From assembly GCA_016185625.1 (NCBI GenBank), contig JACPND010000019.1:1-62864 (forward strand): a stretch of 62,864 bases of DNA. The letters run 5' to 3'. A model generated the notes under the pieces. It saw only the letters and a list, made by a program, of their open reading frames with translations. It did not search any database and was not told the origin of the DNA. Each line of letters opens with the position of its first letter. The stretch's first letter is position 1. The position numbers were made by a program, and so were the translations under genes. Origin of the DNA: Candidatus Woesearchaeota archaeon (GTDB lineage: Archaea > Nanobdellota > Nanobdellia > Woesearchaeales > GW2011-AR9). This document shows positions 6,820-62,817 of the stretch, one piece after another.

Positions 6820-6833
6820 AATGTGTCGAAACA

Positions 6834-7046: not shown

Positions 7047-7070
7047 CTTTTTTAAGAATCAACGCAGAAC

Positions 7071-8257: not shown

Positions 8258-8869
8258 TTATACTCTCTCGGAAAGGTCGTTTACTCTCTTCTCAAAGTCA
8301 TTTATGATTACCAATAAACCAACCTGAGAGTGATATCCTTTACTAATGCTATCTTTATCCCAAGGGAAAGATTTCCATTTTTCATCTAAAATCTTATTTT
8401 TCTTAATTTTTATATCATTATGTAATAAGTAAGTTATAGTGTGCGAAATTAGAAGTATTAAAAGTAAAATCCCCAGCAAAGAACTGACTAAGAAAGCAAA
8501 ATATAAAATTTCCATAGAGACAAGAAGTAAAATGGTAAAGCTGACACTGATGCTAAAATGTCTCCAATAAATATGTGCTGTATCTCTGTCCTCCATGCCT
8601 TCTGGGAATATTTTACTAAATACTTTACTGTAGATTCTAAGTCCAAATAGGTAAATATGTGAACCTATTGCAAAAATAAAAACTAAAAAGAAAAATAAAA
8701 GAAGAAGGGGGTTATTTGCAATTATGGTTAATGAGAATAAACTATTCAAATTAGAAAAGTCAATCAATAGTAGGTATAAAAAGAATAGAGATCCCGATAC
8801 AAAAATTGAAGCATATTTTATAATAATCTCCAGATTTAATGGTGTTGATATCTCCCCTATTTTTCTCAC
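8258..8869 (-). CDS. multi-pass membrane protein (GTG start, overlaps upstream stop as GTGA)
   Basis: Four to five hydrophobic helices. Very AT-rich. Translationally coupled to 8866..11379. Confidence 0.5.
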   Translation of the reverse strand: MRKIGEISTPLNLEIIIKYASIFVSGSLFFLYLLLIDFSNLNSLFSLTIIANNPLLLLFFFLVFIFAIGSHIYLFGLRIYSKVFSKIFPEGMEDRDTAHIYWRHFSISVSFTILLLVSMEILYFAFLVSSLLGILLLILLISHTITYLLHNDIKIKKNKILDEKWKSFPWDKDSISKGYHSQVGLLVIINDFEKRVNDLSERV

Positions 8870-11379
8870 TTAATGTTAAAATTCCCCGTTCTCTGATTAT
8901 CATGCCTTTCAATCGGCCATAGTGCGTCTTTGTCTAACGGCTGTGTACCACAGACGGCGTAAACCCGGTTATTTACCGAATTGCAGAAATAAAGAGTTCC
9001 GTTATTTCCTATGGCTAAATTTGCTGGAGATATGCCATTCATTGTTTTGTTATCAAAATTTTGACTCCAAAGTTCTTCTCCGTTCTTTGGATTTAATGCG
9101 AATAAGCCAGCTTCTCCGAAAACGTAAAGCGTTCTTTCTGTTTGTATGTCTCCATTCACTTCTGTTGATTTTGAGGCAATGGCAACGTCGGAAGTATTAT
9201 CCTTAATACCGTTTTGCCAGTAAACATTACCATTTTTAGTTAGAGATCCGTGTCTTGAGTATAAATTACCTTCTGCATCAATAACCGGAAGCTTGTCACC
9301 TACTTTTTCCTGAATCCATATAACTTGTTCATTTGTGGGATGGTATTTTACTAATTGATCATTCGATGTTGTGAAATATAAATTCCCCTCATTATCAAAT
9401 ATGGGGTAACTGGTTATACTACTTTTGATGATAGACGACAAATCTTTCTTCCACTTTTCAGTTCCATTGGGATTTATAGCATAAAGTGTGTAGTTATTGG
9501 CTGCATAAATAGTTTCTTTTGGACCAACGGATGTACCTACATGATTGTAACCAGGATTATATTCCCATTGTTCTTTGCCATTGAGATTTATTGCAGAGAA
9601 AAAGCCGCGATATTTATTAGCCCAGTCGTAATCTGCTAAATTAGCACTTACATAAGCAGTTCCGGCAAGTGAAACTGTAATTTGAAATATACCCCCGCTA
9701 TCAGCATCGCCACTTGCCCCACCCCCCTCTAAGTCTGGGAGATATTGTACCCAATTTTCTTTTAGAATATCACTTGAAATGGACGTTACTTTCAAATTGT
9801 AATACTTATCATCTCTTACGTATACGGCGCCGTTGTTACTAATAGTTGGGTCTATTGCAATTTTGCCATCTCCGTAAAGCTTGAGATTTCCATCTGTTGG
9901 ATTTAGAGCATACAAGAAACCTTTATCATCATTTACAAAGATAGTCCCATTATGGCCTAGAGCTATGAAGGGATACTTTTCAATACTACATTTTAATTTT
10001 GATACCCCGTCTACCCCGTCTGCTGAACTCCATAGCACACTACCAGCCTTAACATTTGGATTGTTGTCATCACAATCCCAGCTGTTCTTTACATAACCTT
10101 CTGGCTGTTGACAAGACGGCGGCATTAAACTATCCGGGTCACCATCTCCGTCACCATCAGAGTCCTTAAACCATACAAATTGCTCAAATCCTTCATCAAT
10201 TTTTCCATCACAGTTATCATCTATTAAATTACAAATTTCCTTTGCCGTTGGATTTACGGCTGGATTCGAATCGTTGCAATCAGTTGCCAGCTTGACATAG
10301 CCAACTGGTTGCTTGCAATCATTGATGATGGCATCTAAAGTTCCAAAGCCATCGTTGTCATTGTCAAAGTACCAGTTTATAGATACAACGTTGTCATCTT
10401 TGACCCCATTACAATCATTGTCAATGCCGTCGCAAAGTTCAGGTTCTGGCTTTGGTGCATCACATTTCCATTCTCCATTAACACATTCTTCAGACCATTC
10501 ACCGCAGCCCATATCGCACTTTTTCGTTAGATTCTCATCAGTTTGACCATTGCAATCATTATCTAAACCATCACATTGTTCTTTGGTAGGCCACACGTAG
10601 CCAATACACTCGCTCAAGACGCCGTTTGTACAATTTCGTATGCCGTATTCGCATTCGCCAGCATCGGTTTCGCCACAGTTTTGAGGAATTCCATCAATGC
10701 ACTCGCACCCCTCGTCTACTGTTTTATCGCAGTTGTCATCTATGCCGTTGCATAGTTCTGGAAATTCTGGAATACCTGGTCTTATTTTAGGATTGTCATC
10801 ATCACAATCGCCTTGAACATCAACAAAACCTTCTGGTTTACAGTAATTATCTATTTCGCCCAATCCCCCATACTCGTCGCCGTCGTTGTCTTGATACCAC
10901 TTTTTGAGTTTTAACTTATGTTCTTGAAAAGGATCAGATATTTTATCATTAAATCCAGGTTTATCAGTAGAACCATCACAATTATCATCAATGCCGTTGC
11001 ATCCTTCTTCGGCATAAGGATTAATAGGCTTAACCTCGTCATTGCAGTCATCTGCATTATCGGCATAGTTTTCCGGTTTGTCTTTTGGGCAATAAAATTT
11101 TGATGGTTTATTAGGATCTCCAAAATGGTCTTTATCACCATCATAAAAGAACTCTTTTTCTTCACATTTAGTTTCTGCTTCATGTTGAACATCATTATAA
11201 ACTGAAACACTATTCCCAAATCTTATCTCTTGGCGGTTATTTTCTAATTCATAAATGTCTTGCTCGGCAGTGATATCAATATTTTTTTGCGCATTGCCAG
11301 AGATATCATTACTGCCGCAAGATAAAGCAATGGCTGACAATCCGGGTACTAATATTTTTTGTATGATTTTTTCTAGCAT
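8866..11379 (-). CDS. surface lipoprotein: MopE-like Cys/Asp repeats plus C-terminal PQQ/BamB-like beta-propeller
   Basis: Start taken at MLEKIIQKILVPGLSAIALSCGSN, homologous to its neighbours' N-termini and 1 nt after the upstream stop. Repeats CNGIDDNCDG..DE and DGDGFG. Propeller repeats such as LYALNPTDG, LYAINPNGTEKW, LFALNPKNGEELW. Confidence 0.7.
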   Translation of the reverse strand: MLEKIIQKILVPGLSAIALSCGSNDISGNAQKNIDITAEQDIYELENNRQEIRFGNSVSVYNDVQHEAETKCEEKEFFYDGDKDHFGDPNKPSKFYCPKDKPENYADNADDCNDEVKPINPYAEEGCNGIDDNCDGSTDKPGFNDKISDPFQEHKLKLKKWYQDNDGDEYGGLGEIDNYCKPEGFVDVQGDCDDDNPKIRPGIPEFPELCNGIDDNCDKTVDEGCECIDGIPQNCGETDAGECEYGIRNCTNGVLSECIGYVWPTKEQCDGLDNDCNGQTDENLTKKCDMGCGEWSEECVNGEWKCDAPKPEPELCDGIDNDCNGVKDDNVVSINWYFDNDNDGFGTLDAIINDCKQPVGYVKLATDCNDSNPAVNPTAKEICNLIDDNCDGKIDEGFEQFVWFKDSDGDGDGDPDSLMPPSCQQPEGYVKNSWDCDDNNPNVKAGSVLWSSADGVDGVSKLKCSIEKYPFIALGHNGTIFVNDDKGFLYALNPTDGNLKLYGDGKIAIDPTISNNGAVYVRDDKYYNLKVTSISSDILKENWVQYLPDLEGGGASGDADSGGIFQITVSLAGTAYVSANLADYDWANKYRGFFSAINLNGKEQWEYNPGYNHVGTSVGPKETIYAANNYTLYAINPNGTEKWKKDLSSIIKSSITSYPIFDNEGNLYFTTSNDQLVKYHPTNEQVIWIQEKVGDKLPVIDAEGNLYSRHGSLTKNGNVYWQNGIKDNTSDVAIASKSTEVNGDIQTERTLYVFGEAGLFALNPKNGEELWSQNFDNKTMNGISPANLAIGNNGTLYFCNSVNNRVYAVCGTQPLDKDALWPIERHDNQRTGNFNIK

Positions 11380-11380
11380 T

Positions 11381-13459
11381 TTAATCCGCCTTCCCGCATT
11401 TTCCTGATTTTGCAACAAATTTTCCATCTGAGCATTCAGACCAACCATCGCAGTCTAGCGAGATGTAAGCTTTAGTAAACCACTCTTTAATCTGTGGATA
11501 GTCAGATCCTATATGTAAATATTCCCCTACTCCTGCTGTTAAAATTCCTAAGTAGTTTGGATTAGCAAATCCAAATCCCAACGCACAAATCTCAATATTA
11601 TTGTTGTTTGCTTTTTCATTTAGCAGCTCGGGAGCATCACTAGATTGGCCGTCAGTAAAAAGAACAATAGCTCTTTGTCGTTCATTATCTTGGAATTGAC
11701 CTATTGCTGCAAGAACTGCCTTACCAATTTCAGTTCCACCGCCAACGCCTAGAGCTTTCACTCCGTCAAGATATTCTTCAAGTTCGACTTTATCCGAAGT
11801 AAATGAATATTGGTTAAAAGGATAAAACTCGTGGTCAAAAGCAATCATTATACCTCGGTCTTTTTGATTCCAGACTTGGATTACGCTTTCCAACCCATTA
11901 TAGACATAACCAATACTACCCTCCATGCTTCCAGATTTATCAATTACGAATACAATATCATAACCTAAGTTTGTACACTTTGTTTTATCAATAACTATAT
12001 CAGTCAACCCATCACAATCATCGTCAACGCCATTACAGATTTCTTCCATATTTGGATTAACATTGGGATTATCACAGTTGCAATCATCTGAGATCGCAAC
12101 ATATCCTTCTGGCTGTTGGCAATAGAAATCTGATTCGTCAGAGCATCCAAATCCATCTCCGTCAGAATCTTTATAGTATTTAGTTAAACCAAGTAATTCA
12201 TTGTTATTGCCGTCGCAATTATTGTCAATATTATCGCATATTTCAACAGCATTGGGGTTAATGTCTGGATTATCACAATCACAATCATCCCCATTGGTTA
12301 CATATCCCTCCATTAGTTGTTCACACTGTTCTTTTAAGATGTCACTAGGGCATCCAAAGCCATCATTATCAGAATCTTTATATAGGATGTATTTTGTGAA
12401 CCCCTCATCTGTTGCCCCGTCACAATCATCATCCTTACCATTACAAATTTCTGGTTCCAGTTGTGGAGCAGTACAATTAACATAAATTCCATTTAGACAG
12501 GTTTCAAATCCATTTTCTTCACAAAGGTTAGAACAATCTTGAGTTAGGTTTTCATCAGTCTGACCATCACAATTATTATCTAATCCGTCACATTCTTCCT
12601 TGGTTGGATTAATTGCTCCCTTACACTCGCCCCACGTTCCCTCAAGACACTTCTGAACGCCATAACTACATTCACCAACATTGGAAGTACCGCAAGGTTC
12701 GGTTTTTCCATTAATACAGGCGCATTTCTCATCTATCGTACCATCAGAGTTATTATCAATCCCGTCACAGATTTCGGGTATATTGGGATTAACATTGGGA
12801 CTTGTATCGTCGGTGTCATTAGGATTTTGTACATAGCCATTATCAGGATGGGTACAAAATAACTTTTTACCGTTAGGATCACCAAACCCATCTCCATCAT
12901 TGTCTTTATACCATTGAGAATGAATTAATCCTTCATTTACGCCATCATCCCCAGGATCGCAGAGTATACCATCCTTATTGGTATCCTCTTCACAATCACA
13001 ATTATCATCTACGTCATTGCATATTTCTGCCGCAGCTGGATTACGATAAGGATTATCATCGTCACAATCATTAAGTGGGGGATTTGAAGGAATCTGGCAA
13101 GCTTTAGCCCAATTTTTATAGGCTTGGCTCCCAGTATCAATATAACCATCTTTGTCTTTATCGGTCTCCGAATTTAGATAAGTGCTGCAATCAATCTCAT
13201 TCTCAGTATCCTTTGAAGATTCTTCTACTGTAGAATCTTGTTGATCAACGGAATAATTATCTGCTTTTGGAGTAGAAGAATCTGGTTTTGAATAAACCCA
13301 CCCATTTATGCTGCTGCCAGTATCACCACTAACATTGATTCTGTTATTATCGTTAGCACCTATATTATCACCACAACCATGCAGGCCTAAAAGTAAGGAC
13401 GTGGTGAGCAGAGTTCTTCTGAACGGTATTTTTTGAAGTATTTTTTCTAGCATTTTCAT
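11381..13459 (-). CDS. surface lipoprotein: MopE-like Cys/Asp repeats plus von Willebrand factor A domain
   Basis: Signal plus GCGDN lipobox. Repeats CDGxDNNCDG. VWA MIDAS DKSGSM and LFTDGQSSD. Confidence 0.7.
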   Translation of the reverse strand: MKMLEKILQKIPFRRTLLTTSLLLGLHGCGDNIGANDNNRINVSGDTGSSINGWVYSKPDSSTPKADNYSVDQQDSTVEESSKDTENEIDCSTYLNSETDKDKDGYIDTGSQAYKNWAKACQIPSNPPLNDCDDDNPYRNPAAAEICNDVDDNCDCEEDTNKDGILCDPGDDGVNEGLIHSQWYKDNDGDGFGDPNGKKLFCTHPDNGYVQNPNDTDDTSPNVNPNIPEICDGIDNNSDGTIDEKCACINGKTEPCGTSNVGECSYGVQKCLEGTWGECKGAINPTKEECDGLDNNCDGQTDENLTQDCSNLCEENGFETCLNGIYVNCTAPQLEPEICNGKDDDCDGATDEGFTKYILYKDSDNDGFGCPSDILKEQCEQLMEGYVTNGDDCDCDNPDINPNAVEICDNIDNNCDGNNNELLGLTKYYKDSDGDGFGCSDESDFYCQQPEGYVAISDDCNCDNPNVNPNMEEICNGVDDDCDGLTDIVIDKTKCTNLGYDIVFVIDKSGSMEGSIGYVYNGLESVIQVWNQKDRGIMIAFDHEFYPFNQYSFTSDKVELEEYLDGVKALGVGGGTEIGKAVLAAIGQFQDNERQRAIVLFTDGQSSDAPELLNEKANNNNIEICALGFGFANPNYLGILTAGVGEYLHIGSDYPQIKEWFTKAYISLDCDGWSECSDGKFVAKSGKCGKAD

Positions 13460-13472
13460 TCTTCCGTTATCA

Positions 13473-15272
13473 TTATTGGCACTGCCCTTTCAGACAGCCA
13501 TTCAGGCAATAAGTCTTCCCTTGAAGCTGACAATTACTTTCCTGAAATACTTTATATATTGTGTCAAAACATTTCCAGCCTTCAGTACAGTCGGAAGTCT
13601 TATTCTGGACGGCATATTCATCCGTTGGTTCTTCACACGACAAATCACAAGTAAACATTATATCAAAGTCGTCTAAATTTATGTTTGAAGCGCTCACAAA
13701 TTTGTAACACTCGCCTTGCCATTTTAGAGTGAAACAGGCTTTATCTTCACACATCCCAACAGCATATTCGAGCGTTTCACCGGTATTGACACTCTTTATC
13801 TTAATTTTTGGACTACTTTTAGTAGATTTGTCTGCACCTTTGTACTCAAATATTTGACTATCAAGACCAAATATCTCTCCTTTAGAGAATATATCGTTAC
13901 AAGCTAATGCACTAAGTTCTTTACACACACCGTTTATATAATAACTGGCAAAAGAATCGTCGCAATCTAATTTATTATCTATAAATCCTTCTGGTTTCCC
14001 GCAATCAAACATGAAAACATCTGGATTGCCAAAACCATCACCATCGACATCCTCATAGAACTTACTGAATGGCAGCCCTTCGTCAACAGAACTGTTACAA
14101 TTATTATCTAAACCGTCACACACTTCTACAGCACCGGGATTGATGTATTTATCATTATCATTGCAATCTCCAGATTTAGGCGCATAGCCTTCTTCTAACT
14201 CTTTACAATCAACCTTAAACGTAGATGAGCCAAAACCATCACTGTCAGCATCTTTATATCCCGTTGTAAATACCAAGCCTTCATCTATTGCCCCATTACA
14301 ATTATCATCCTCTCCATTACATATCTCTTCTTTCGGTTTTGGTGCAGTACAATTAACATAACTTCCGTTTACACAAGTTTTATCTCCAGGTCCACACTGG
14401 TTTGAACAATCTTGAGTTAGATTTTCATCTGTAAGACCATTGCAGTTATTATCCAACCCATCACATTCTTCTTCAACTGGATTTATTGCTCCTTTGCACT
14501 CGCCCCACGTTCCTTCAACACACTTTTGAACTCCATAACCACATTCACCACCATCAGTAAGACCGCATTTCTGAGTAGTTCCATCAATACACTCGCACGT
14601 CTCATCTACATTATTATCACAGTTATCATCTATACCGTTGCATAGTTCTAAAGCAACGGGATTAAGATAGCTGTTATTGTCATTACAGTCATCTTTATTC
14701 TTAACATATCCTTTGGTTGGTTCGTTACAAAATAATTTCTCTAAGCCGCCGGAGTTACCAAATCCGTCTCCATCGTTGTCTTTATGCCAAGGGAAACGGA
14801 GAAAGCCTTCATCGGCATTACCATTACAATTGTCGTCTATGCCATTACAGGTTTCTTTAGCAAAAGGATGAATCTTATCATTACTATCATTACAATCCCC
14901 ATTCCAATCCTCATTCCATGGATCTGGAACGGAGATGTAGCCTCCTGGTGGATTACATGCTTCTATACCGTATTTAATCGGGAAGCCATCTTCATCTCCA
15001 TCCCAGTAGAATTTTTTCTTCTCGCAAGCCGGCTCAATAATTTCTTCGGAGAAACCATCTTGATAAGTTACTTCATCTTTCCCTACAAATTCGTCAATTC
15101 GTCCAGCGTCAGCTTCATTTCCGCTCAAATCAGTTGCTTCATACGTAGAATCAGGATTGATGATATTCTTAGGAGTGTTAGATAGCTCAGAATTCCCACA
15201 ACCCGACAACGTGTACACCAGCGCAGATATCTTTACAACGGGGGCGAATGATCGTAACAGTTTCTCCAGCAT
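13473..15272 (-). CDS. surface lipoprotein: MopE-like Cys/Asp repeats plus Cys-rich C-terminal domain
   Basis: Start at MLEKLLRSF...SGCGNS. Same repeat units as the two downstream paralogues. Confidence 0.65.
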   Translation of the reverse strand: MLEKLLRSFAPVVKISALVYTLSGCGNSELSNTPKNIINPDSTYEATDLSGNEADAGRIDEFVGKDEVTYQDGFSEEIIEPACEKKKFYWDGDEDGFPIKYGIEACNPPGGYISVPDPWNEDWNGDCNDSNDKIHPFAKETCNGIDDNCNGNADEGFLRFPWHKDNDGDGFGNSGGLEKLFCNEPTKGYVKNKDDCNDNNSYLNPVALELCNGIDDNCDNNVDETCECIDGTTQKCGLTDGGECGYGVQKCVEGTWGECKGAINPVEEECDGLDNNCNGLTDENLTQDCSNQCGPGDKTCVNGSYVNCTAPKPKEEICNGEDDNCNGAIDEGLVFTTGYKDADSDGFGSSTFKVDCKELEEGYAPKSGDCNDNDKYINPGAVEVCDGLDNNCNSSVDEGLPFSKFYEDVDGDGFGNPDVFMFDCGKPEGFIDNKLDCDDSFASYYINGVCKELSALACNDIFSKGEIFGLDSQIFEYKGADKSTKSSPKIKIKSVNTGETLEYAVGMCEDKACFTLKWQGECYKFVSASNINLDDFDIMFTCDLSCEEPTDEYAVQNKTSDCTEGWKCFDTIYKVFQESNCQLQGKTYCLNGCLKGQCQ

Positions 15273-15398
15273 ATCTTCTCCCACACACCATTCACCACTG
15301 GGATATAGGTACTTACTTATAAATCTTTTGGTATTTCAGTAGTTTTTCGGTATTTATTCAGAACTATCATTAAATTACCGAAACAGTTCTGGAATTAG

Positions 15399-15662
15399 AT
15401 GGACAAAGAACTGATTAACGATTATTCATGGATCCTGCGCGGCAAGCAGCGACGCACCATCCTGAAATTCTTGAACGCCCCAAAAACACCGACGCTGATC
15501 ATGGAGGAGACGAAGATAAAAGTAAGCAACGTCTCCGATGTCTTGCGAGCCATGGAAAATTACGGCCTGGCAAAATGTCTGAATCCAAAAGAGAAACAGG
15601 GAAGATTGTATCAACTGACGAAGAAAGGCAAGAAAGTTCGTGAAATGCTGTATCCGGAGTAG
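15399..15662 (+). CDS. small winged-helix transcriptional regulator
   Basis: 87 aa; RRTILKFL....TPTLIMEET..KVSNVSDVLRAMENYGL fits the wHTH pattern. TATA CATTAAAT about 30 nt upstream. Confidence 0.55.
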   Translation: MDKELINDYSWILRGKQRRTILKFLNAPKTPTLIMEETKIKVSNVSDVLRAMENYGLAKCLNPKEKQGRLYQLTKKGKKVREMLYPE

Positions 15663-24904: not shown

Positions 24905-25026
24905 TGCGGACGGCAGGGTTCGAACCTGCGCAAGCACTAAGCTACTGGACGTTTCTCACGAGAAACCTCAGAGGTTTTGCCTCTCGTGCCTGAATCCAGC
25001 CCGTTTGGCCACTCCGGCACGTCCGC
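24905..25026 (-). tRNA. tRNA-Leu(CAG) with about 38-nt anticodon-loop intron
   Basis: Acceptor GCGGACG/CGTCCGC. Anticodon stem CTGGA/TCCAG, loop TTCAGG..; intron contains the hairpin CACGAGA/TCTCGTG. Long variable arm. T arm GCAGG-TTCGAAC-CCTGC. Discriminator A. Confidence 0.8.
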
Positions 25027-25889: not shown

Positions 25890-27713
25890 ATGTCAGAACT
25901 CGGGTTGAAATGCGGACTGGAAATCCACCAGCAATTGGAAGGAAAGAAATTATTCTGCTCCTGTCCAACGCTTCTGCGAGAGGATGAACCTCATTTCAAA
26001 ATCAAACGGAAATTACGGGCCACGGCCGGCGAAAGCGGAGAGATTGATGTAGCAGCACTTCAGGAACAACTGAAAGGCAAGACGTTTGTCTATGAAGGAT
26101 ATCATGATACGACCTGTTTAGTGGAAACGGATTCCGAGCCGCCGCATGAGGTGAATAGAGATGCGCTGTACACGACCTTACAATTCTCGGCTTTCATGAA
26201 AGCCAACGTTTCTCCAATCGTGCAATTTATGCGGAAAACAGTGGTGGATGGTTCAAATACATCCGGATTTCAACGCACGGGGTTGATTGCCCAGAACGGA
26301 ATCATGGAGACAGATCAGGGAAAAATACATATTACTAATATTTCGCTGGAAGAGGATGCGTGTAAGATCATTTCTGAGACTGCCAATGAGAAAACGTATC
26401 GCCTCGATAGGCTGGGCATTCCGCTCATCGAGATTGGCACTGGTCCGGACATCACCTCGCCGGAACAATGCTTAGACGTTGCGAAAAAGATCGGCTTGCT
26501 GCTGCGCAGTTTACCCGGTGTGAAGCGTGGCTTGGGAACGATTCGGCAGGACGTCAATGTTTCGATTGCCGGAGGAACTCGTATTGAAATTAAAGGCGCG
26601 CAGGAGTTGCGCCTGCTGCCGTTGTTTGTGGAATTGGAAGCCAAAAGGCAACAGGAATTGCTGAAGATAAAAGAAGAATTGAAAAACAAGAAATTGAACG
26701 CCTTCAGTATTTCTGATTTGACTTATGTTCTGAAAAATTCAAGTTCTAGCATTATCCGGAAAACTCTGGACAAGAATGGAAAAATTCTCGGCCTCAAACT
26801 CTCTGGTTTCTCCGGACTTCTAGGGCGAGAATTGATGCCCAAGTATCGTGTAGGCACGGAATTGGCAGGCAGAGCGAAAGTGAAAGCCGGTGTCGGAGGT
26901 ATCTTTCACTCGGATGAATTACCTAATTACGGGATTACTGAACAGGAAGTGCGTGCTCTTCGGAAGGAGCTGGACTGCGGGCCAGAAGATGCGTTGGTGC
27001 TGGTTGCCGACGAAGAGAACAAAGCGCGGACTGCCCTGAGTGCTGTCTATGAACGGCTGCAGGAATTATTTCTTGGTGTTCCTGCGGAAGTCCGCAAAGC
27101 GAATGATGATGGCACGACTTCGTATATGCGGCCCATGCCGGGAGCCGCACGTATGTATCCCGAGACGGATGTACCTCTTATTTTCCCGAATGCCAAAAAC
27201 GTGCACTTGCCGGAATTGCTGGAGCAGAAAATAGTGCGCTTCCAGACGCAATATGGCTTAAGCAAAGATTTAGCGGAATTTGTGGTTAAATCAGAGAAAT
27301 TATTTTTATTCGAAGAGTTGGTACAGAAATATCCGGATATGAAAGCAGCGTATATCGCCGAGACGCTGACGTCAACCTTACTGGACATCAAGCGGCAATA
27401 TCAACTGGATCCGGAGAAATTGACGGATGAAAACTTTAAGGAGTTATTCCGGTATTTATCTGAAAACAAAATACACAAAGGTATTGTATTAGACGTCCTG
27501 ATTGACATGCTGCGCGGCTCATTCAGCATTCGGCATTATGAGACGCTGTCGACGGAGGATATGCATAAAACGCTGAAGGAAATTGTGCAGAAGAATCTGG
27601 GCGCTCCGTTTTCTGCATTAATGGGATTGGCGATGAAGCAGTTGGCGGGAAAAGCTGACGGGAAGACGATTTCGCAGGAATTACAGAAGATTCTGAAGGA
27701 AGGGCACGGGTGA
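25890..27713 (+). CDS. gatE: Glu-tRNA(Gln) amidotransferase subunit E
   Basis: N-terminus LKCGLEIHQQL, 607 aa, archaeal GatE insertion domain and YqeY-like tail. Confidence 0.92.
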   Translation: MSELGLKCGLEIHQQLEGKKLFCSCPTLLREDEPHFKIKRKLRATAGESGEIDVAALQEQLKGKTFVYEGYHDTTCLVETDSEPPHEVNRDALYTTLQFSAFMKANVSPIVQFMRKTVVDGSNTSGFQRTGLIAQNGIMETDQGKIHITNISLEEDACKIISETANEKTYRLDRLGIPLIEIGTGPDITSPEQCLDVAKKIGLLLRSLPGVKRGLGTIRQDVNVSIAGGTRIEIKGAQELRLLPLFVELEAKRQQELLKIKEELKNKKLNAFSISDLTYVLKNSSSSIIRKTLDKNGKILGLKLSGFSGLLGRELMPKYRVGTELAGRAKVKAGVGGIFHSDELPNYGITEQEVRALRKELDCGPEDALVLVADEENKARTALSAVYERLQELFLGVPAEVRKANDDGTTSYMRPMPGAARMYPETDVPLIFPNAKNVHLPELLEQKIVRFQTQYGLSKDLAEFVVKSEKLFLFEELVQKYPDMKAAYIAETLTSTLLDIKRQYQLDPEKLTDENFKELFRYLSENKIHKGIVLDVLIDMLRGSFSIRHYETLSTEDMHKTLKEIVQKNLGAPFSALMGLAMKQLAGKADGKTISQELQKILKEGHG

Positions 27714-27803: not shown

Positions 27804-28337
27804 ATGTTGCAGATGATACGGAAATGGAGCAGATATCGGGTTTTGCAGCAGTTTTTCGATTTTCCACGCAAAGCTTTCCTGATTCGCGAACTCTCCAGGA
27901 ATACGAAGCTCGCCCAGACCGCTATTCGAGTTGCCTTGAAAGCGTTGCTCGCGGAAGGACTTATAACGAAGGACAAAAAGGGCTTGTATCCGTCATTCAG
28001 AGCAGTAAGAGAAAGCCTCCTTTTCAAGATTATGAAAGCCCAGAATATCATCTTAAGGCTACATCAGACAGGTATTTTGAGCACGGTTGAGAAAGCAGCA
28101 TATCCATCGTGCATTGTGCTTTTTGGCAGTGCCTCCCGAGGGGAGGATACTGAAGAAAGTGATATTGACCTGTTCGTCCAGGCAAAGAGAATGAAGCTTG
28201 ATTTCAGCAAGTTTGAAAAGGCATTGAACCGCAAGATTAATCTGTTATTCGAGCCTGACCTGAAAACCATCAGTCCAGAATTGCTTAACAATTTGGCTAA
28301 TGGTGTCGTCGTGTATGGATATTTGAAGGTGGTCTGA
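27804..28337 (+). CDS. wHTH plus minimal nucleotidyltransferase (MNT antitoxin-type)
   Basis: LFGSASRGEDTEESDIDLFV NTase motif. N-terminal winged-helix-like region. Confidence 0.8.
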   Translation: MLQMIRKWSRYRVLQQFFDFPRKAFLIRELSRNTKLAQTAIRVALKALLAEGLITKDKKGLYPSFRAVRESLLFKIMKAQNIILRLHQTGILSTVEKAAYPSCIVLFGSASRGEDTEESDIDLFVQAKRMKLDFSKFEKALNRKINLLFEPDLKTISPELLNNLANGVVVYGYLKVV

Positions 28338-28339: not shown

Positions 28340-28771
28340 ATGCTTCCCTGGGACGAATCGTCGGATAAAGTAAGCAAAATTCGCCCTGATAGCGAAAAAG
28401 CCAAAGCACTACAGAAAATGACTGAAATGCACGAAAAGCGTGCCAAAATAACTCCTTTGCCGGACATGGCCACGTTGCTCGTCGAGGAATATTATGAAAT
28501 TGTCAAAGAACTCATCACGGCAATCATGAGTTGTGACGGTTGGAAAACCACCAGCCACGAGTTTCTCATCAGCTACTTGGCAAAATTCTATCCTGAATTT
28601 ACTGCTGCCGAAATCGCTTTGATTGACCAGCTCAGGCAAATGAGAAACGACATTGGTTATCGAGGCGTCATGATCAACCCTGAATATGTCCAGAGGAACA
28701 AGGCAGCAATAATCGATGTTATCACCAGACTCAAGGACGTAACGAATAAGCGAATAGCCAAACAACACTGA
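28340..28771 (+). CDS. HEPN-domain protein (toxin-type partner of MNT)
   Basis: Helical 143 aa with LRQMRNDIGYRG at the expected HEPN motif position. Starts 2 nt after the MNT stop. Confidence 0.7.
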   Translation: MLPWDESSDKVSKIRPDSEKAKALQKMTEMHEKRAKITPLPDMATLLVEEYYEIVKELITAIMSCDGWKTTSHEFLISYLAKFYPEFTAAEIALIDQLRQMRNDIGYRGVMINPEYVQRNKAAIIDVITRLKDVTNKRIAKQH

Positions 28772-28789: not shown

Positions 28790-28906
28790 CCTGGTGCGCC
28801 ATTTTCGGCATTAATGGGATTGGCGATGAAGCAGTTGGCGGGAAAAGCTGACGGGAAGACGATTTCGCAGGAATTACAGAAGATTCTGAAGGAAGGGCAC
28901 GGGTAA
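28790..28906 (+). pseudogene. relic copy of the gatE 3' end (last about 38 codons plus TAA)
   Basis: 28808-28904 is identical to 27615-27711. Upstream codons still encode GAPFS with synonymous differences. Confidence 0.85.
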
Positions 28907-43186: not shown

Positions 43187-43534
43187 GTAATACTTCAGCT
43201 TCTTGAAGTTAGAAGCTCTGCTATCTTCTCGCTTTTGAAGTGTAAGTCGAGAGCAGACGCAAGAAGGGAGCGTTGCAAGACGGGATAGGTTTCCCGTCTG
43301 CACAGGAAAGAAATCGTTGTTTCTTTCCTTGTGTCCCTTCTGCGCCGAAGGGGAATTCCCTTCGTGCGTTCTCCGTAAGTCTAGTCACTCCGCTTTGCTC
43401 CGTTCGTGTCAAGTCACTAGCGTTCGTGAGTTACCTAACGGTAACAGTTGCTTGTCAGCAACAGACGACCCTCTTGTCGGCTTGATGTATCTATTGAGAA
43501 AGCGCGACTGAGGATAGCAGAGCTTCAGAAAGCT
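43187..43534. mobile_element. MITE (GTAATACTTCAGC family, long copy) with 8-bp target-site duplication, inserted between rps27e and the aIF2alpha gene
   Basis: AAATTCTC at 43179-43186 and 43535-43542. 13-nt perfect terminal inverted repeats. No credible ORF. Confidence 0.8.
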
Positions 43535-43558
43535 GAAGTATTACAAATTCTCTAAACA

Positions 43559-43566
43559 TTTATAAA
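43559..43566 (+). promoter_or_regulatory. TATA box (AACATTTATAAAT) 32 nt before ATG 43591
   Basis: Consensus match. Lies just downstream of the MITE duplication. Confidence 0.6.
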
Positions 43567-50116: not shown

Positions 50117-50524
50117 CTAAATAACTGTTGTTTTCATCTCCTCAATGCCTTCAAAATCTGGATCGCCAGAATACAGAACTGTGCAATTGGCAAGTATGGC
50201 CGTCGCCAGATGAATCATGTCCGCATAAGATACTCTTCGTTCTTTGCTAAAGTATTTTTTCCTCAAGTCGGCAGCTAATGAAGCCACGGGCAAAACAACA
50301 GGAACAATAACCAGATTTGGAAATGTTTCGATTATGTGTACTTGTTCATGTGCTAATTCCTCATTGATCTTGCCCAACCTGTACTTGATCTCTGTAATGT
50401 TTAACGCATTGATCATGGCCTTCTCTCTCCCACTCTGTACCGACTCTAGGATTTCCTTACAACGTTCAAACTTCTTTCCTTCCGCAAAAAACTCGATCCA
50501 AATCCAAGAATCAAGAAAAATCAT
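50117..50524 (-). CDS. vapC: PIN-domain toxin VapC
   Basis: MIFLDSWIWIEF... (N-terminal Asp) and ...VLYSGDPDF. Confidence 0.85.
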   Translation of the reverse strand: MIFLDSWIWIEFFAEGKKFERCKEILESVQSGREKAMINALNITEIKYRLGKINEELAHEQVHIIETFPNLVIVPVVLPVASLAADLRKKYFSKERRVSYADMIHLATAILANCTVLYSGDPDFEGIEEMKTTVI

Positions 50525-50759
50525 GGGACCACTCTTTTTTACCTTCTTTGATCATCGCTTTGATTTCAGAGTCAGAAAACCGCAGCAGCTGCCGAAGTTC
50601 CAGCATTCGAGCTACAGGATTTTTATATGTTGGAACAAGAACAACTTCTCCATGTTCAGGGATGAACGCAATTCTCCTTCCTTTTTCCAACCCATATTTT
50701 TCTCTGATCTCTTTCGGTATGGTCACCTGTCCTTTCGAAGAGATTATCGCTTCAGCCAT
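50511..50759 (-). CDS. vapB: AbrB/SpoVT-type antitoxin VapB
   Basis: SSKGQVTIPKEIREKYGL. Overlaps vapC by 14 nt. Confidence 0.85.
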   Translation of the reverse strand: MAEAIISSKGQVTIPKEIREKYGLEKGRRIAFIPEHGEVVLVPTYKNPVARMLELRQLLRFSDSEIKAMIKEGKKEWSHDFS

Positions 50760-50801
50760 CTTACTTTTCTGAAAGAAGTAAGAATTTATAAATGTTTTGC
50801 T

Positions 50802-50925
50802 TTAATCTTCCTTTCTCCTTAACCCCTTCACCGTCCCAAACGCAAACACCTCTCCTTTGCTCACGATAAACACCTCAAAATCGTCGAGCTTCTGCAAATA
50901 CGGACTGAGCAGCTGCTCTTTCAAA
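50802..50925 (-). pseudogene. relic copy of the 3' end of the metallophosphoesterase gene 53261..53971
   Basis: 50834-50925 is identical to 53293-53384. The remaining codons read FGTVKGLRRKED* versus FGKVKGLRRKEE* in the intact gene. Confidence 0.85.
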
Positions 50926-51436
50926 CCTGCTCATAAATAAGCAACCTCGCCTTTTCAAGAACTTCCTTACACGTTTCAGACAAGAGAGTAAAGAGCTTTC
51001 TATCGGTGAAAGTTTGCTCCAGCCCATACTGAAAATCTTCCCGTACTTCAATGATACTCAAATCAATTTCTTTGGCTTTGGCAATTAAGAACATATCAAT
51101 GAAAGACTGGTCTAAGGAAATAATGCCCTGTTCTCTTAGGAGTTCAATTATTGCTAAAGTGCATTCCTGATTCCTGCTTTCATAACCGTGTTTTCTGATG
51201 ATTGCCAAGAAGCAGTGATAGGCACAATAAAAGAATCCGCTGGCAGACCAGTCAGAATATCCATGCTCATCAAAAAAAAGGGCCGCCTCGAAATTATGCT
51301 GTGCTTTATCGAGATGCCTTTTTGCGCTATTGTTGTCAGGTTCAACTTGGATTAAGCCACGATGGATGCCTTGCTCTTCTAATTCCCGTTTGGCTTTATT
51401 TAAGCACCACTGCACTTTCTTTTCTGTTTGTAACAT
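50921..51436 (-). CDS. HEPN-domain protein (toxin-type partner of MNT)
   Basis: Helical 171 aa with VREDFQYG at the same relative position as RNDIGYRG in 28340..28771. Lies 3 nt after the MNT stop. Confidence 0.65.
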   Translation of the reverse strand: MLQTEKKVQWCLNKAKRELEEQGIHRGLIQVEPDNNSAKRHLDKAQHNFEAALFFDEHGYSDWSASGFFYCAYHCFLAIIRKHGYESRNQECTLAIIELLREQGIISLDQSFIDMFLIAKAKEIDLSIIEVREDFQYGLEQTFTDRKLFTLLSETCKEVLEKARLLIYEQV

Positions 51437-51439
51437 GAT

Positions 51440-52069
51440 TTACCTCGATTCAGGCTTAGGAATGGCAAAATAACCATAGCCCTGCTGTACCTGCAAGATG
51501 GTTTGAATAATCACCTCATACCCCCGCAGAACATAGCCAAATTTAATGGCGTTGAGGAGCACGGAATCAGGTTTCTGGATATTATTTTTGAAATCCTTTG
51601 GCGACTGCCAGACAACGTGGATCGGCTTCAAAGAAACTTTATTTTCTTTTTGTACTATCTGTTGGGCAGCAGTAAGGTGTTTCTCTTGAACAACCACCAG
51701 AAGATCTATATCTCTGGCTTTGGCATAGTCTCGTACAGCCGAGCCAAAGATAATAACTGCCTCTGTTATCGGAAAGAGTTTTTCAAATTGATGCCGCCAT
51801 CGTTGTGCCTGTTGCTGTGTTTCGGTCATCAGAAGCATTTTGACCATGTCGCAACCATAGGGGTTAGCAAGATTTGCTTTGTAAAAAATTGCTCTTCCGT
51901 ATCGTCTGCTGATGACCAGTTCCTCTTGGTGGAGTGTTTTCACCACATTCAGCGCTCCCCGACGAGTAATTCCTAGTTTGGCAGCGAGCGTATTGGCATT
52001 ATAATCACTGGCAAAATCTTTGTACAGGAGCAAAAGTGCTTTTCCTTCAGTGGTGGTAATGAGTTTCAT
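51440..52069 (-). CDS. wHTH plus minimal nucleotidyltransferase (MNT antitoxin-type)
   Basis: IIFGSAVRDYAKARDIDLLVVV. N-terminal HTH-like LAAKLGITRRGALNVVKTL. Confidence 0.8.
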   Translation of the reverse strand: MKLITTTEGKALLLLYKDFASDYNANTLAAKLGITRRGALNVVKTLHQEELVISRRYGRAIFYKANLANPYGCDMVKMLLMTETQQQAQRWRHQFEKLFPITEAVIIFGSAVRDYAKARDIDLLVVVQEKHLTAAQQIVQKENKVSLKPIHVVWQSPKDFKNNIQKPDSVLLNAIKFGYVLRGYEVIIQTILQVQQGYGYFAIPKPESR

Positions 52070-52261
52070 TGTGAATAATTATTTCACATATGTGAAATTA
52101 TATTTCCTATATAAATGTTTTGGTGATTTTGGTCAACAGGATGACAGACAAATCTCTGGTGGCAATGAAATATATTCTCCAACATATATTTTGGATATAT
52201 ATATATATATTTAAATGGTTGTTTCTTCTTTCTAACATCATATCAAAAATGAGGTGTCCTT

Positions 52262-53206
52262 ATGAATAAACTGAAACAGTTCATTCTACCATTAGTTTTA
52301 TTGAGTATCCTAATCTTACTTGTCAGTTGTGCGCCGAAAACAGAATATACTGGCGACGTCACTCCGGAAGAAGCGGCTGCCGTATCCACAGAAGAAGGAA
52401 AAACGTTGGCTGGTCAGGCCGTGAAGGTTAATTTTGAAAATTGCGCCGATCCGGATGCGACGAGTCAATTTGATCAGAACCAGTTACTAACCAAATCCGT
52501 TACTACTTTTGGTTCCGGTTCACGAGAGGATAAATGTTATACGTGGAATAAGGGAACACCATCAGAAAAAACGAGGTTGATCGAAGGAACGTGCAAGCAA
52601 GAAGGCGGAAAGTCAAAATTCATATATTGGTATGCGGATTGTGATGTGACGTTTGGGAAAGGGACGAAATGTGTTGATGGTGCTTGTGTGCCGAGTTGCG
52701 ATCCTATTCAGTTGAGTCCTTACTGTACTTTTGATACATTGAATAATGTTGACACACTAGTTGACGTATCAAAGAATCCCTGTACTGGCTTAGTAAATGT
52801 TGTACAAACATCTTGTCCTGGTGGATGTACTAATGGGGATTGTATACAGGGTGGTTCGTCGGGTGGCGGAGGCGGATATGGTTTCATTTCCGGTGATTCG
52901 TGTGAGGCCGATATCCTGGTAATAAATAAAGATAAAAAATATGATTGCTCAAAAGAAGCGGGGTGGATATTCAAAGCAAAAACCTGTGCGCCCCCCATTG
53001 AAGAATATTCTTCGTTGGTCAAGTATGTCTGTGCAGAAGCATGTACCCCTGGGCAGACCGCCATTTCCTGTGACGAGGATGGTGATTTCCACGAACAGAC
53101 CTGCAATCAGAATGGATTTGGTTGGAGCCTTGCGAAGAAGAAGGGATGTCCTGAAGGCCAAACCTGTAAAGTAGATCCTGTAAAAAAATCTGGTATTTGT
53201 AAATAA
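52262..53206 (+). CDS. secreted Cys-rich lipoprotein
   Basis: Signal ending LLVSC, about 30 Cys, G-rich linker. GAGGTG lies 7 nt before the ATG. Confidence 0.55.
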   Translation: MNKLKQFILPLVLLSILILLVSCAPKTEYTGDVTPEEAAAVSTEEGKTLAGQAVKVNFENCADPDATSQFDQNQLLTKSVTTFGSGSREDKCYTWNKGTPSEKTRLIEGTCKQEGGKSKFIYWYADCDVTFGKGTKCVDGACVPSCDPIQLSPYCTFDTLNNVDTLVDVSKNPCTGLVNVVQTSCPGGCTNGDCIQGGSSGGGGGYGFISGDSCEADILVINKDKKYDCSKEAGWIFKAKTCAPPIEEYSSLVKYVCAEACTPGQTAISCDEDGDFHEQTCNQNGFGWSLAKKKGCPEGQTCKVDPVKKSGICK

Positions 53207-53260
53207 TGCCGAAAAGCTCTTTCCACTTTTTAGGCTTCAGAAGTTACCGTTTTTTTTTCT

Positions 53261-53971
53261 TTACTCTTCTTTCCTTCTTAACCCTTTCACTTTCCCAAAC
53301 GCAAACACCTCTCCTTTGCTCACGATAAACACCTCAAAATCGTCGAGCTTCTGCAAATACGGACTGAGCAGCTGCTCTTTCAAAACATCCGTCCCTTCCG
53401 TCAATGGATTGAAACTCGGCATGGCGATCAATTCTTTGCGCTTCCATTTCCCTTTCAGAAAACATTTGTATTTCTCCCGTTTACTCTTCTCCCTCAGGGT
53501 AATCGCCGGATGCTCGTGCCCGATAATGATCCGTTTCGCTTTCGTATTATGAAGTTCATCACCATGGAAAATAGCGGTGTCACCAATCGCTAAATCTTTT
53601 ACCACGTTGATGTTTCGTCTCTTTGCCAGCGGACCGATAATCATATCGTGATTCCCTTTCACAATAATCAATTCATGGCCATGCTCCAATAAAAAATCAA
53701 TCAGTTGCAGCACTTCTTTCCATTCCTGCCGTAATACTCTGCCAAATTCATGTTTTAAATCTCCATTAATGACGATTCTTGCCGGTGTTACCCTCTTGAA
53801 AATCTCCCTTAATTTTTGGAGTATTTCTTCTAACTGAAACTTCGGCACCATCATGCCCTGCTGCTGCAAGGCTTCTTCATAGCCGACATGAAGATCACTG
53901 ATAATCAGCGTTTTCTCTTTCTTCAGCCATAAAGCGGTTTCAACAATCTCCATTCCTGTGGTTATTTCCAT
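53261..53971 (-). CDS. metallophosphoesterase (MJ0037-like)
   Basis: ISDLHVG, INGDLKH, VKGNHD, GHEHP. Confidence 0.85.
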   Translation of the reverse strand: MEITTGMEIVETALWLKKEKTLIISDLHVGYEEALQQQGMMVPKFQLEEILQKLREIFKRVTPARIVINGDLKHEFGRVLRQEWKEVLQLIDFLLEHGHELIIVKGNHDMIIGPLAKRRNINVVKDLAIGDTAIFHGDELHNTKAKRIIIGHEHPAITLREKSKREKYKCFLKGKWKRKELIAMPSFNPLTEGTDVLKEQLLSPYLQKLDDFEVFIVSKGEVFAFGKVKGLRRKEE

Positions 53972-54195: not shown

Positions 54196-54292
54196 GAAGG
54201 GTTTGAATAACCTATCTTAATAGTTCAAACCCTTCTAAGTAGGATACCAACAGACAGAAATGATTGATGAGATAGTTCTGTCTGTTGTATCC

Positions 54293-54367
54293 AATTTTGT
54301 ATATCTTGGGCTAGGCACAAGACTTGAAATCCGTAGATTTCATTGATTATTTATGTCCTTCGCTATA
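54293..54367. repeat. 75-nt partial copy (one arm) of the element at 62724..62817, inverted orientation
   Basis: Exact reverse complement of 62724-62798. Confidence 0.85.
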
Positions 54368-54432
54368 ACACATATCAGAAGCAGAAATCTTTATAAAGAT
54401 TTGTGACACTCTCCCTTCAAGAGGTCTGTGTT

Positions 54433-59127: not shown

Positions 59128-59180
59128 AAGTGAAGAATATTGTGGAAGTATAAAATATTTTCTACAGAGCCTGCAAAAAG

Positions 59181-59413
59181 GGCACTATCCGTTTGGTGAG
59201 TGATGGCTTGGCCAGTAAGTGTCTGACCAAGAGAACGATCTGCTCAAGTTAAGGTCCGAAAACAATCTAAAGCCTATGAATTATGCATCCAGAGAAAAGT
59301 CTAGTCTTCGGTTGGTCAGACGGCCAGCCATCACCCGCTCACGAGATGAGGCAACGACCTCATCTGTGCACCAGTGAAGTATAGTTTCTTCACTTTGTGT
59401 TTTGGATAGTGCC
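59181..59413. mobile_element. MITE (GGCC-bulge hairpin family) with 8-bp target-site duplication
   Basis: GCAAAAAG at 59173-59180 and 59414-59421. Termini GGCACTATCC / GGATAGTGCC. Core GATGGCT-T-GGCC...GGCC-AGCCATC. Confidence 0.75.
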
Positions 59414-59428
59414 GCAAAAAGGGTGCCG

Positions 59429-59579
59429 TTGAAAAGTTCTGCCGCCGCTCGCCAAGTCGCTTTCTTGCGAACATCTTTCGCTGCTCTGTGCTATTGCCCG
59501 ATAGGAAGAAAGCAACCAATAATCATCTGTAACTTACTGCTGTTCTTGGCTCGCACTATCTGGCGGCAGAACTTTTCAA
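59429..59579. repeat. 151-nt hairpin element with 18-bp perfect terminal inverted repeat
   Basis: TTGAAAAGTTCTGCCGCC ... GGCGGCAGAACTTTTCAA. Its left 75 nt recur at 62459-62535. Confidence 0.6.
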
Positions 59580-62200: not shown

Positions 62201-62248
62201 GTGATTACGGTTTAAAAGGGGTGATGTTTATAAGATTTATGCGTAATT

Positions 62249-62450
62249 GGCACTATCCGTTTTGTGAGTGATGGCTAGGCCAATAAGTGTCTGACCAAGA
62301 GAACTATCTGCTCAAGTTAAGGTCCGAAAACTATGAATAATTACGTGAGTTGTGCAGCTTGGAAAAAATCTGGTTTTCGGTTGGTCAGGGAAAAAATCTG
62401 GTTTTCGGTTGGTCAGACGGCCAGCCATCACTCACTTTTGGGGTTGTGCC
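62249..62450. mobile_element. MITE (GGCC-bulge hairpin family) with 8-bp target-site duplication; contains a 2 x 28-nt internal tandem duplication
   Basis: GCGTAATT at 62241-62248 and 62451-62458. The left 85 nt are nearly identical to 59181-59265. Tandem units at 62361-62388 and 62389-62416. Confidence 0.7.
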
Positions 62451-62723
62451 GCGTAATTGGTGCCGTTGAAAAGTTCTGCCGCCGCTCGCCAAGTCGCTTT
62501 CTTGCGAACATCTTTCGTTGCTCTGTGCTATTGCCCCATTTAATATGCTTGTTTGAGGAAGAAGGGGTATTGGTTTTTTTTGTATTTTTTGAGCTCTCGC
62601 TCAAGTTCTTCAATCTTTTTATCTCTTTCAATAATGAGATCCATTAATTCCTCTTTACTCCTTTCTAAGAGATGAATCTGAAAAGCCATGAAAGAAGGAT
62701 AATGTCTCTATTTAGAAGTGTGC

Positions 62724-62817
62724 TATAGCGAAGGACATAAATAATCAATGAAATCTACGGATTTCAAGTCTTGTGCCTAGCCCAAGATATACAAAATTGT
62801 TATGTCCTTCGAATATA
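62724..62817. repeat. 94-nt MITE-like element of the TATAGCGAAGGACATAA family (complete copy)
   Basis: Arms TATAGCGAAGGACATAAATAAT / TTGTTATGTCCTTCGAATATA. Confidence 0.6.

Follow-up and report, generated by a model that had tools for sequence, protein, structure and literature searches.

How does a putative toxin-antitoxin (TA) gene pair come to lie behind a housekeeping gene, with a second copy of that gene's end on its far side? This question is raised by contig JACPND010000019.1 (assembly GCA_016185625.1), 62,864 nt of DNA (43% GC) from a Woesearchaeota-type DPANN archaeon; the whole of this 63-kb stretch is referred to below as the window. It contains two cassettes in which the gene for a minimal nucleotidyltransferase (MNT) is followed by a HEPN-like gene, one behind gatE and the other behind a metallophosphoesterase gene, and each is bracketed by a direct repeat derived from the end of its host gene. 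We read this anatomy as that of an imported cassette whose foreign gene end became the live one, leaving the resident end displaced as a relic, and we ask which mechanism would best account for it.

Self-comparison of the window revealed a direct repeat of 131 nt (94% identical) around a 2.46-kb insert, which contains a lipoprotein gene, an MNT gene with an N-terminal winged helix-turn-helix (wHTH), and a HEPN-like gene (Table 1). The first 92 nt of the repeat, in gene orientation, are identical, exactly as a sequence-only reading of this DNA had claimed, and the gene calls of that reading for this second cassette hold; by our own estimate an exact repeat of 92 nt is not expected by chance in 63 kb. 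All eight differences between the copies fall within the final 39 nt. The same reading had put the relic at 35-40 codons: it is indeed a relic of the gene end, with a corrected size of 41 codons plus the stop codon and 7 nt beyond it. The stop codon of the HEPN gene, TGA, falls within the first bases of the relic (TTTGAAAG). The C-terminal translations are FGKVKGLRRKEE for the live gene and FGTVKGLRRKED for the relic, and they are separated by four synonymous and two non-synonymous codons, with six of the seven within-codon differences at third positions. Judged by this pattern, the relic is an allele and not a decayed copy. The phosphoesterase scored 202 bits against the NCBIfam model TIGR00024 SbcD_rel_arch (cutoff 115), and the nearest homologue on record is 69% identical. 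Because orthologues of 233-237 aa align with it through its C-terminus, the live gene is complete.

Table 1. Positions of the two cassettes and of the genes and repeats around them in the window.
Feature	Position	Strand	Remarks
Live host gene: archaeal SbcD-related metallophosphoesterase, 236 aa	53261..53971	-	Pfam Metallophos; TIGR00024
Live repeat copy: last 41 codons, stop and 7 nt	53254..53384	-	diverged tail 53254-53292; identical block 53293-53384
Cys-rich predicted lipoprotein, 314 aa	52262..53206	+	signal peptide and LVSC lipobox
Divergent intergenic region	52070..52261		palindrome 52073-52106 just upstream of the MNT start
wHTH-nucleotidyltransferase (MNT), 209 aa, putative antitoxin/regulator	51440..52069	-	Pfam NTP_transf_2, Polbeta, HTH_11
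HEPN-like protein, 171 aa, putative toxin	50921..51436	-	Pfam HEPN 21 bits, cutoff 22
Relic, read as displaced allele: last 41 codons of the phosphoesterase gene, stop and 7 nt	50795..50925	-	identical block 50834-50925
VapB (AbrB/MazE-type)	50511-50759	-	Pfam/NCBIfam
VapC (PIN)	50117-50524	-	Pfam/NCBIfam
gatE 3' end	27600-27711	+	repeat copy
MNT of the gatE cassette	27804-28337	+	PDC-M05A, E=4e-16
HEPN-like gene of the gatE cassette	28340-28771	+	no Pfam match
gatE relic	28793-28904	+	repeat copy

The gatE repeat claimed in the sequence-only reading is likewise real, with 112 nt at 96% identity, 97 nt of which are identical. The two MNT-HEPN pairs had been said to differ in sequence, and pairwise BLASTP found no similarity between them, yet both MNTs match PADLOC PDC-M05A, a candidate defence family (E=5e-14, near full length, for the phosphoesterase cassette). 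A recombination motif common to the junctions of the two cassettes had also been suggested; the alignment gave no convincing motif, only one 12-mer, TTTTCGGCATTA, at non-equivalent positions, for which we estimate a chance expectation of about 1%.

Two occurrences in one window had been taken to argue for a recurring mechanism rather than an accident, and other archaeal loci bear this out. Only 15 homologues of the MNT were detectable in a 5.8-billion-protein index; their contexts were combined with 56 further loci from genome and metagenome scans, and individual loci are given by number below (L003, L008 and so on). Self-comparison of each locus showed that in many of them direct repeats bracket the MNT-HEPN pair at a spacing of 1.2-1.4 kb. 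Tight bracketing by host-derived direct repeats was found at 7 of 28 de-replicated testable loci, compared with 15 of 2,855 (0.5%) random pseudo-cassettes placed within the same loci (binomial P about 1e-10, our own arithmetic). L037 and L048 were also bracketed under looser criteria. Among the closest cassettes (68-79% amino acid identity), three of five have relics, each from a different host gene: in the window this is the phosphoesterase gene, in L008 a 507-aa gene in convergent orientation, and in L077 a MutS-like gene. The relic in L008 is 55 nt long with one mismatch (54/55), its stop codon being TAG where the live copy has TGA; that in L077 begins at the HEPN stop codon. No such relics were found in L011 and L003, which are also close cassette relatives. 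The convergent gene in L008 shows that the host gene's orientation, previously described as common to the whole cassette, is not a rule.

The duplicated host segments range from 37 to 1005 nt and include gene 3' ends, 5' ends, whole genes and intergenic segments. That the 3' end is the duplicated part, as first supposed, is not a rule, since it fails at L003, L014, L025, L027 and L046. L003 has a perfect copy (39/39; 14327-14365 and 15468-15506) of the Pelota start codon and the following 36 nt, located beyond an inserted wHTH/HVO_2833_C gene of 305 aa. A gene 5' region is duplicated in L014 and L027, and a whole small gene is repeated five times in L025. In L046 (1-3429 and 4214-6010), the MNT-HEPN pair lies between two intact full-length alleles of a NAD-epimerase-like gene with 86% amino acid identity; in its neighbourhood, a GT2 glycosyltransferase gene contributes both repeats around an AAA_14-DUF4143 ATPase gene, with its 3' end on one side and a 58-nt relic of that end on the other. 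The MNT-HEPN pair was correctly named as cargo, but it is not the only one: AAA_14-DUF4143 ATPases, a wHTH protein and a Bro-N protein with another HEPN/MNT pair are also bracketed elsewhere. The AAA_14-DUF4143 ATPase gene of the window itself is not bracketed by repeats. In L027 (4157-9185), MNT-HEPN pairs alternate with S/N-rich paralogous genes, each preceded by a repeated, signal-peptide-like mini-open reading frame (ORF) of 29 aa. The L027 repeats were considered as a gene 3' end and this was rejected, as they consist of the small signal-peptide-like ORF and the 5' end of the paralogous gene family. Comparison of L017 (3771-7666) with L037 (4129-7135) showed 93.5% identity of the AAA_14-DUF4143 ATPase gene and 94.3% identity of the MNT gene, together with a repeat unit of ~140 nt that differs in number and position. 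In L017 the ATPase gene occurs twice in tandem and most of the HEPN gene is gone, so that the MNT is an orphan. This polymorphism is too tangled to be read as single events.

The array in L028 (2996-8269) is the clearest. Downstream of a live gene of the LPG_synthase_TM family come four different cassettes (PIN; an unknown 179-aa protein; DUF2283 and RelE-like; MNT and HEPN), and behind each of them lies a relic that repeats 120-220 nt from the 3' end of the LPG-synthase-family gene. These relics are 71-85% identical and still encode the same peptide. Their 5' boundaries differ, and they have in common an invariant 28-nt block, TAACTCCCGCAGGTTTAGGAATAAACGA. Relics 1 and 3 are 96% identical to the left of this block and 71% to its right, and such mosaics imply crossovers inside the repeat.

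Synonymous and non-synonymous codons number 29/12, 19/4 and 22/5 in L028 relics 1-3. When these three were pooled with the phosphoesterase relic, 86 of 115 differences (75%) were at third positions and 73 of 95 differing codons were synonymous. When neutral decay of a local duplicate was simulated as the alternative, with selection maintained on the live gene, the result was 44±4% third-position differences and 35±4.5% synonymous codons, and none of 300 runs reached the observed values. Since the synonymous bias exceeds that of in-situ divergence, the copies diverged as working gene ends in different lineages, which fits the earlier suggestion that relics are alleles of other lineages. On this comparison, the live and relic copies are alleles kept under purifying selection and united by horizontal transfer.

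When related cassettes in different contexts were compared, homology began ~55-67 nt before the MNT ATG and ended at the HEPN stop codon, a length of ~1.15-1.2 kb, with a TATA-like element and a palindromic or repeated operator in the upstream part. Compared with its relatives, the HEPN protein of the window lacks 1-3 residues at the C-terminus and that of L024 lacks ~8; that of L077 is longer by ~15-20, and in all three the HEPN stop codon lies at or in the relic. Sequence alignment thus indicates that the far-end joint is imprecise and variable between events. L023 and L024 have the same host genes and cassette, with ~88% identity over 3.8 kb; only L024 has a truncated HEPN gene fused to a 37-nt relic, whereas L023 has the full HEPN end and no relic. 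Identity between them is ~86% in the host genes and ~93% in the cassette. Because this step occurs at the cassette promoter, the cassette has a more recent history than its flanks.

Past the VapB and VapC genes lie an Fpg gene and a gene for a bPH_2 protein (Pfam), and relatives keep this order: phosphoesterase, variable small genes (often TA pairs), Fpg, bPH_2. Because synteny is conserved around variable small genes, the site behind the phosphoesterase gene is a hotspot, and the VapBC pair directly after the relic would be either resident or an older occupant of the same hotspot. Neither the phosphoesterase relic nor an unoccupied site was found in three orthologous loci of relatives, where the hotspot is variable. 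A weak relic candidate in L068 was rejected (score 26, shuffle mean 19.8±3, maximum 33). Nor were older, decayed relics found downstream of VapC or of the gatE relic. The apparent alternative downstream context of L076, seen in Logan contigs of the VapB/VapC genes, proved to be a Nextera adapter. On the other side of the locus, an 81-nt inverted repeat (54292-54372 and 62719-62799; 99% complementary), with arms 8.3 kb apart, encloses the stretch from an MFS transporter gene to an eIF-2B-like gene, and one arm lies between the phosphoesterase and MFS genes.

These comparisons show the anatomy, its recurrence, the allelic and mosaic nature of the relics and the variable joints, and no recombinase was detected in the window; which enzymes acted, how the DNA came in and whether the TA pair stabilises the insert are matters of inference, as follows. 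The mechanism that we favour, with somewhat more belief than doubt, is homology-anchored import by host recombination, without a dedicated recombinase. The 2.46-kb block would have come in by horizontal transfer, at the hotspot directly behind the phosphoesterase gene; its donor would be a related lineage in which the cassette already lay beside the same conserved gene, so that the incoming DNA would bring its own allele of the gene end. A crossover within the gene-end homology, made by the general machinery of the host, would join the foreign end to the resident gene body and keep the gene intact. The far end, at the HEPN stop codon, would be joined imprecisely 41 codons before the resident stop; this non-homologous end must lie just past the HEPN gene if the pair is to stay functional. 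The resident gene end would thus be left downstream as a relic and the foreign end would become the live one. Two routes can be envisaged. A linear fragment could enter through one homologous arm and one illegitimate joint (homology-facilitated illegitimate recombination, HFIR), or the cassette could circularise, the joint having formed earlier, and integrate by a single Campbell-type crossover. Repeated events at one gene would produce arrays of cassette, relic, cassette, relic, with the newest cassette predicted to lie beside the live gene. Addiction and defence cargo would predominate by survivorship, as repeats of 40-260 nt would lose their inserts unless the loss were lethal. Several features expected of homology-anchored displacement are present: a conserved segment of the neighbouring gene is duplicated, the copies are different alleles, and the joint is imprecise.

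Several points weigh against this mechanism. The case is made by sequence comparison, and an integrase might be encoded outside the window or on a helper element; L027 does have a tyrosine recombinase. A single crossover between diverged alleles would not give 92 identical nt followed by ~20% divergence. An extra step would be needed: the repeats may have undergone gene conversion afterwards, or a crossover may already have taken place there, for example if the relic tail arrived together with the VapBC pair directly after it. At each new host gene, the cassette would first have to be placed without the help of homology. The canonical Rx4-6H motif is missing from the HEPN family, so the addiction argument leans on a putative toxin. 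In the comparison of L023 with L024, the identity step sits at the cassette promoter and not inside the host gene, and microhomology at the L024 joint is limited to ~1 nt. The ends of the cassettes are tight, lying between -25 and +63 nt relative to the HEPN stop codon, and tight ends together with the identity step would also fit a defined mobile unit. Finally, neither an empty site nor a circular form nor an older relic came to light, and the Logan contigs are split at the repeat edges.

A further proposal, which we advance tentatively and with more doubt than belief, is that DPANN archaea harbour recombinase-free mobile cassettes, each made of a TA or defence pair with a short copy of a neighbouring housekeeping gene's end, which would be excised between the repeats, could re-enter any relative by that homology and would be protected from loss by the toxin.

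Site-specific integration is the rival that survives best, although we consider it unlikely. The repeats would then be attL and attR, with an attP that includes the gene 3' end; the element would have lost its integrase, or never have had one, and would be mobilised in trans, as with bacterial cis-mobilizable elements (CIMEs) or tycheposon satellites, and arrays would grow by accretion at one att site. Direct repeats that restore a gene 3' end are its classical signature, and gene 3' ends are the targets of phage 21 and e14 in icd and of ICESt1/3 in fda. The direct repeats flank the insert in the window and one of them completes the target gene. The invariant 28-nt core within the L028 repeats also fits, and so do the tightness of the cassette ends and the step in identity at the edge of the cassette, as does the tyrosine recombinase (Phage_integrase with a zinc ribbon) encoded at 720-2000 of L027, 1.3 kb from the array, and the inspected part of the genome is 63 kb in a lineage whose genome size we take to be around 1 Mb. 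However, the sequence-only reading was right that no recombinase accompanies the cassettes: no integrase, transposase or recombinase domain was found by Pfam in the ~50 ORFs of the window. L027 is the only locus with such a gene, and no relative of its integrase was detected in the other loci by tblastn, which is a weak test. Closely related cassettes lie at no fewer than three unrelated target genes, the two window cassettes share no convincing junction motif, and no common att site or core was found for related elements. It is hard to square a single att specificity with duplicated segments as short as 37 nt and as long as a whole 1-kb gene, some of them 5' ends, and the point at which a joint shortens or lengthens the HEPN gene varies. 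Rfam identified two tRNA genes in the window (3539-3627 and 24905-25026 (-); 55.8 and 44.4 bits), both missed by ARAGORN and, at 89 and 122 nt, probably intron-containing; neither is adjoined by a cassette or other insertion. Nor do the cassettes look like transposons, as there is no transposase, no terminal inverted repeats were found at the cassette ends, and the duplications are both allelic and highly variable in length. A search of IMG/VR gave no match for viral contigs with this MNT family. Whichever of homology-anchored import and site-specific integration applies, we are considerably more confident in the anatomical reading (an imported cassette, the foreign end live and the resident end displaced) than in either mechanism.

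Very little credence can be given to local duplication, in which the insertion itself would have duplicated the target, as a very long target-site duplication or through replication slippage or tandem duplication, and the copies would have diverged in place. The near-identical pairs (L003 Pelota, L008, and the 92 and 97 identical nt of the window) would suit it. It was already disfavoured by the synonymous bias, which no simulated in-situ duplicate reproduced, and by the mosaics; the L028 relics, diverged and still coding for the same peptide, and the two intact full-length alleles in L046 argue against it as well.

The chance that we are dealing with an assembly artefact or a mixed population is also slight. 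In this case an empty-site strain and a 2.46-kb circle, or the locus of another strain, would have been merged through the 92-nt repeat. Logan k=31 contigs end exactly where the 92-nt block starts and stops, which is what a repeat longer than k should cause, and they cannot separate an integrated cassette from an empty site plus circle. However, the junctions from HEPN to repeat and from repeat to both tails are present in independent Logan assemblies from several SRA runs, the same architecture was assembled in many unrelated metagenome-assembled genomes and metagenomes, including long contigs, and the repeat is, by our reasoning, shorter than typical reads and the largest assembler k-mers.

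An integron-like array with the repeats as attC-type sites has next to no plausibility: short, TA-rich cassettes separated by similar repeats of ~100-200 nt do occur in L025, L027 and L028, and integrons have been reported in Archaea (PMC9668308), but the repeats are in-frame gene ends with synonymous variation, they fold no better than shuffled sequences (z -0.1 to -1.7, both strands), Rfam found only the two tRNA genes in the window and no integron integrase IntI was found there, so that both defining features, IntI and attC, are absent.

The genes of the cassettes resemble those of a known TA system in part. In both cassettes, MNT and HEPN are adjacent and co-oriented, with a gap of 3 nt (51436/51440) in the phosphoesterase cassette and 2 nt (28337/28340) in the gatE cassette. 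The MNT of the former scored 25 bits against Pfam NTP_transf_2 (cutoff 21), and its GS..DxD motif (IIFGS...A.DIDLLV), which agrees with the minimal nucleotidyltransferase motif hG[GS]x9-13Dh[DE]h, is kept in 25 relatives. The partner HEPN-like family (window, L003, L008, L011, L077 and others) has a conserved GYESRNQxCT, with T at the position expected for H, and a motif check across relatives did not find the catalytic Rx4-6H. The family may be an inactive or mechanistically different HEPN. PDC-M05B was not matched by the HEPN protein of the phosphoesterase cassette and was matched weakly by its gatE counterpart (E=2.6e-4). Thus, the cassettes are like the type VII TA system HepT/MntA and PDC-M05 in having an adjacent pair of nucleotidyltransferase and HEPN-like genes with GS..DxD kept. 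They differ from HepT/MntA in the N-terminal wHTH of the MNT, in scores of 15.8 and 32.5 bits for the two window MNTs against the MntA equivalog model (cutoff 60), and in RNQxCT where Rx4-6H should be in the phosphoesterase-cassette HEPN. The divergent intergenic region upstream of MNT is the probable promoter/operator of the MNT-HEPN operon, and a similar palindrome is found upstream of MNT in L008 and L077.

The lipoprotein gene had been placed on the minus strand; it is on the plus strand, opposite to the other cassette genes and convergent with the host gene. Pfam, NCBIfam and PADLOC profile searches matched its product to no known family. The gene is also present on Logan contig L001, from the same population. 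The 314-aa cassette neighbour in L003 shares no similarity with it, and lipoprotein, MNT and HEPN were rejected as a conserved three-gene unit. By these comparisons, the lipoprotein gene is a passenger private to this population and lies outside the conserved cassette unit, which limits the earlier description of it as cargo.

Other repeats were noted in the window. A module of ~330 nt occurs twice (59172-59502 and 62240-62539; 3.05 kb apart, ~90% identity) and comprises a short, conserved ORF on the minus strand (…GNSTEQRKMFARKRLGERRQNFSTAP…) together with a long, stable hairpin (-59 kcal/mol, z = -3.7). The copies lie ~40 nt upstream of minus-strand genes for a 187-aa protein and an eIF-2B-family protein, and no Rfam match was obtained; the module could be a shared leader or regulatory module, or a 5'-side duplication like the relics. 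Inverted repeats of ~93 nt (1838-1930 and 6962-7053; 85-90%) flank a 5-kb segment with a tRNA gene and small ORFs. One of their arms is adjoined by a ~113-nt direct repeat (6729-6841 and 43455-43566, 36.7 kb apart) of the region upstream of the eIF-2 alpha gene, and this arrangement could be a further scar left by rearrangement or import. On the minus strand at 8866-15284, three very large ORFs of 603-860 aa lie side by side and have many internal repeats of 60 nt and 256 nt; at least one has Cu-binding, Cys-rich MopE-type repeats, and their products are probably surface proteins.

DPANN archaea have tiny genomes with few recognisable mobile elements and many TA and defence genes. A gene-end relic is a simple, searchable scar that marks individual import events, and relics may further preserve the order in which these happened and, in their alleles, a trace of the donors. 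If host recombination alone suffices, any cassette that punishes its own loss could colonise conserved gene ends throughout a lineage. This would explain why addiction modules pile up in such hotspots, would extend the logic of sequential displacement from bacterial toxin loci to housekeeping genes and to Archaea, and would allow integron-like arrays to form at the ends of core genes without any integrase.

The closest parallel is found in bacteria. Sequential displacement arrays have been described at type VI secretion system (T6SS) effector-immunity loci of Vibrio and in the 'orphan' 3' regions of Rhs genes, where HFIR was proposed (Kirchberger et al. 2017, PMC5361080), and 'C-terminal displacement' was described at Rhs/CdiA loci (Jackson et al. 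2009, cited in PMC5361080). In these arrays, and in our reading of the archaeal cassettes, a conserved upstream gene is the homology anchor, the incoming module replaces the 3' part, older 3' ends with their modules are pushed downstream, the copies are alleles from different lineages, and there is no site-specific recombinase. In T6SS/Rhs arrays, however, the displaced 3' end is a variable toxin domain and the retained immunity genes are obviously beneficial. In contrast, the anchor of the archaeal cassettes is an unrelated housekeeping gene whose end is barely changed at the protein level, the cargo is a self-contained TA or defence pair, the hosts are DPANN archaea, and 5' ends and whole genes are duplicated too.

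Integrative elements that target gene 3' ends, and CIMEs, also have flanking repeats of a gene 3' end, an intact target gene, integrase-less derivatives and tandem arrays. They need a tyrosine or serine recombinase and a fixed att core, whereas the archaeal cassettes have no detected integrase, unrelated targets and variable boundaries that cut into a cargo gene. Chromosomal integron arrays are similar in that small, often TA-bearing cassettes lie between related repeats, and TA cassettes are thought to stabilise them; the archaeal arrays differ in having no IntI and no attC structure, and in repeats that are coding gene ends. Homology-facilitated illegitimate and Campbell-type integration (de Vries & Wackernagel 2002; Prudhomme et al. 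2002; Meier & Wackernagel 2003; cited in PMC5361080) agrees with our reading in that one homologous arm suffices while the other end joins with little or no homology, and in that a single crossover of a circle duplicates the homologous segment; these are, however, laboratory phenomena in transformable bacteria. A limited literature search found no description of their natural recurrence with TA cargo and array building in archaea, or of TA cassettes flanked by gene-end relics, whether in DPANN or in other archaea. The principle is thus known, and what is new is its combination with housekeeping gene ends as anchors, TA and defence genes as cargo, DPANN archaea as hosts, and integron-like arrays that lack an integrase.

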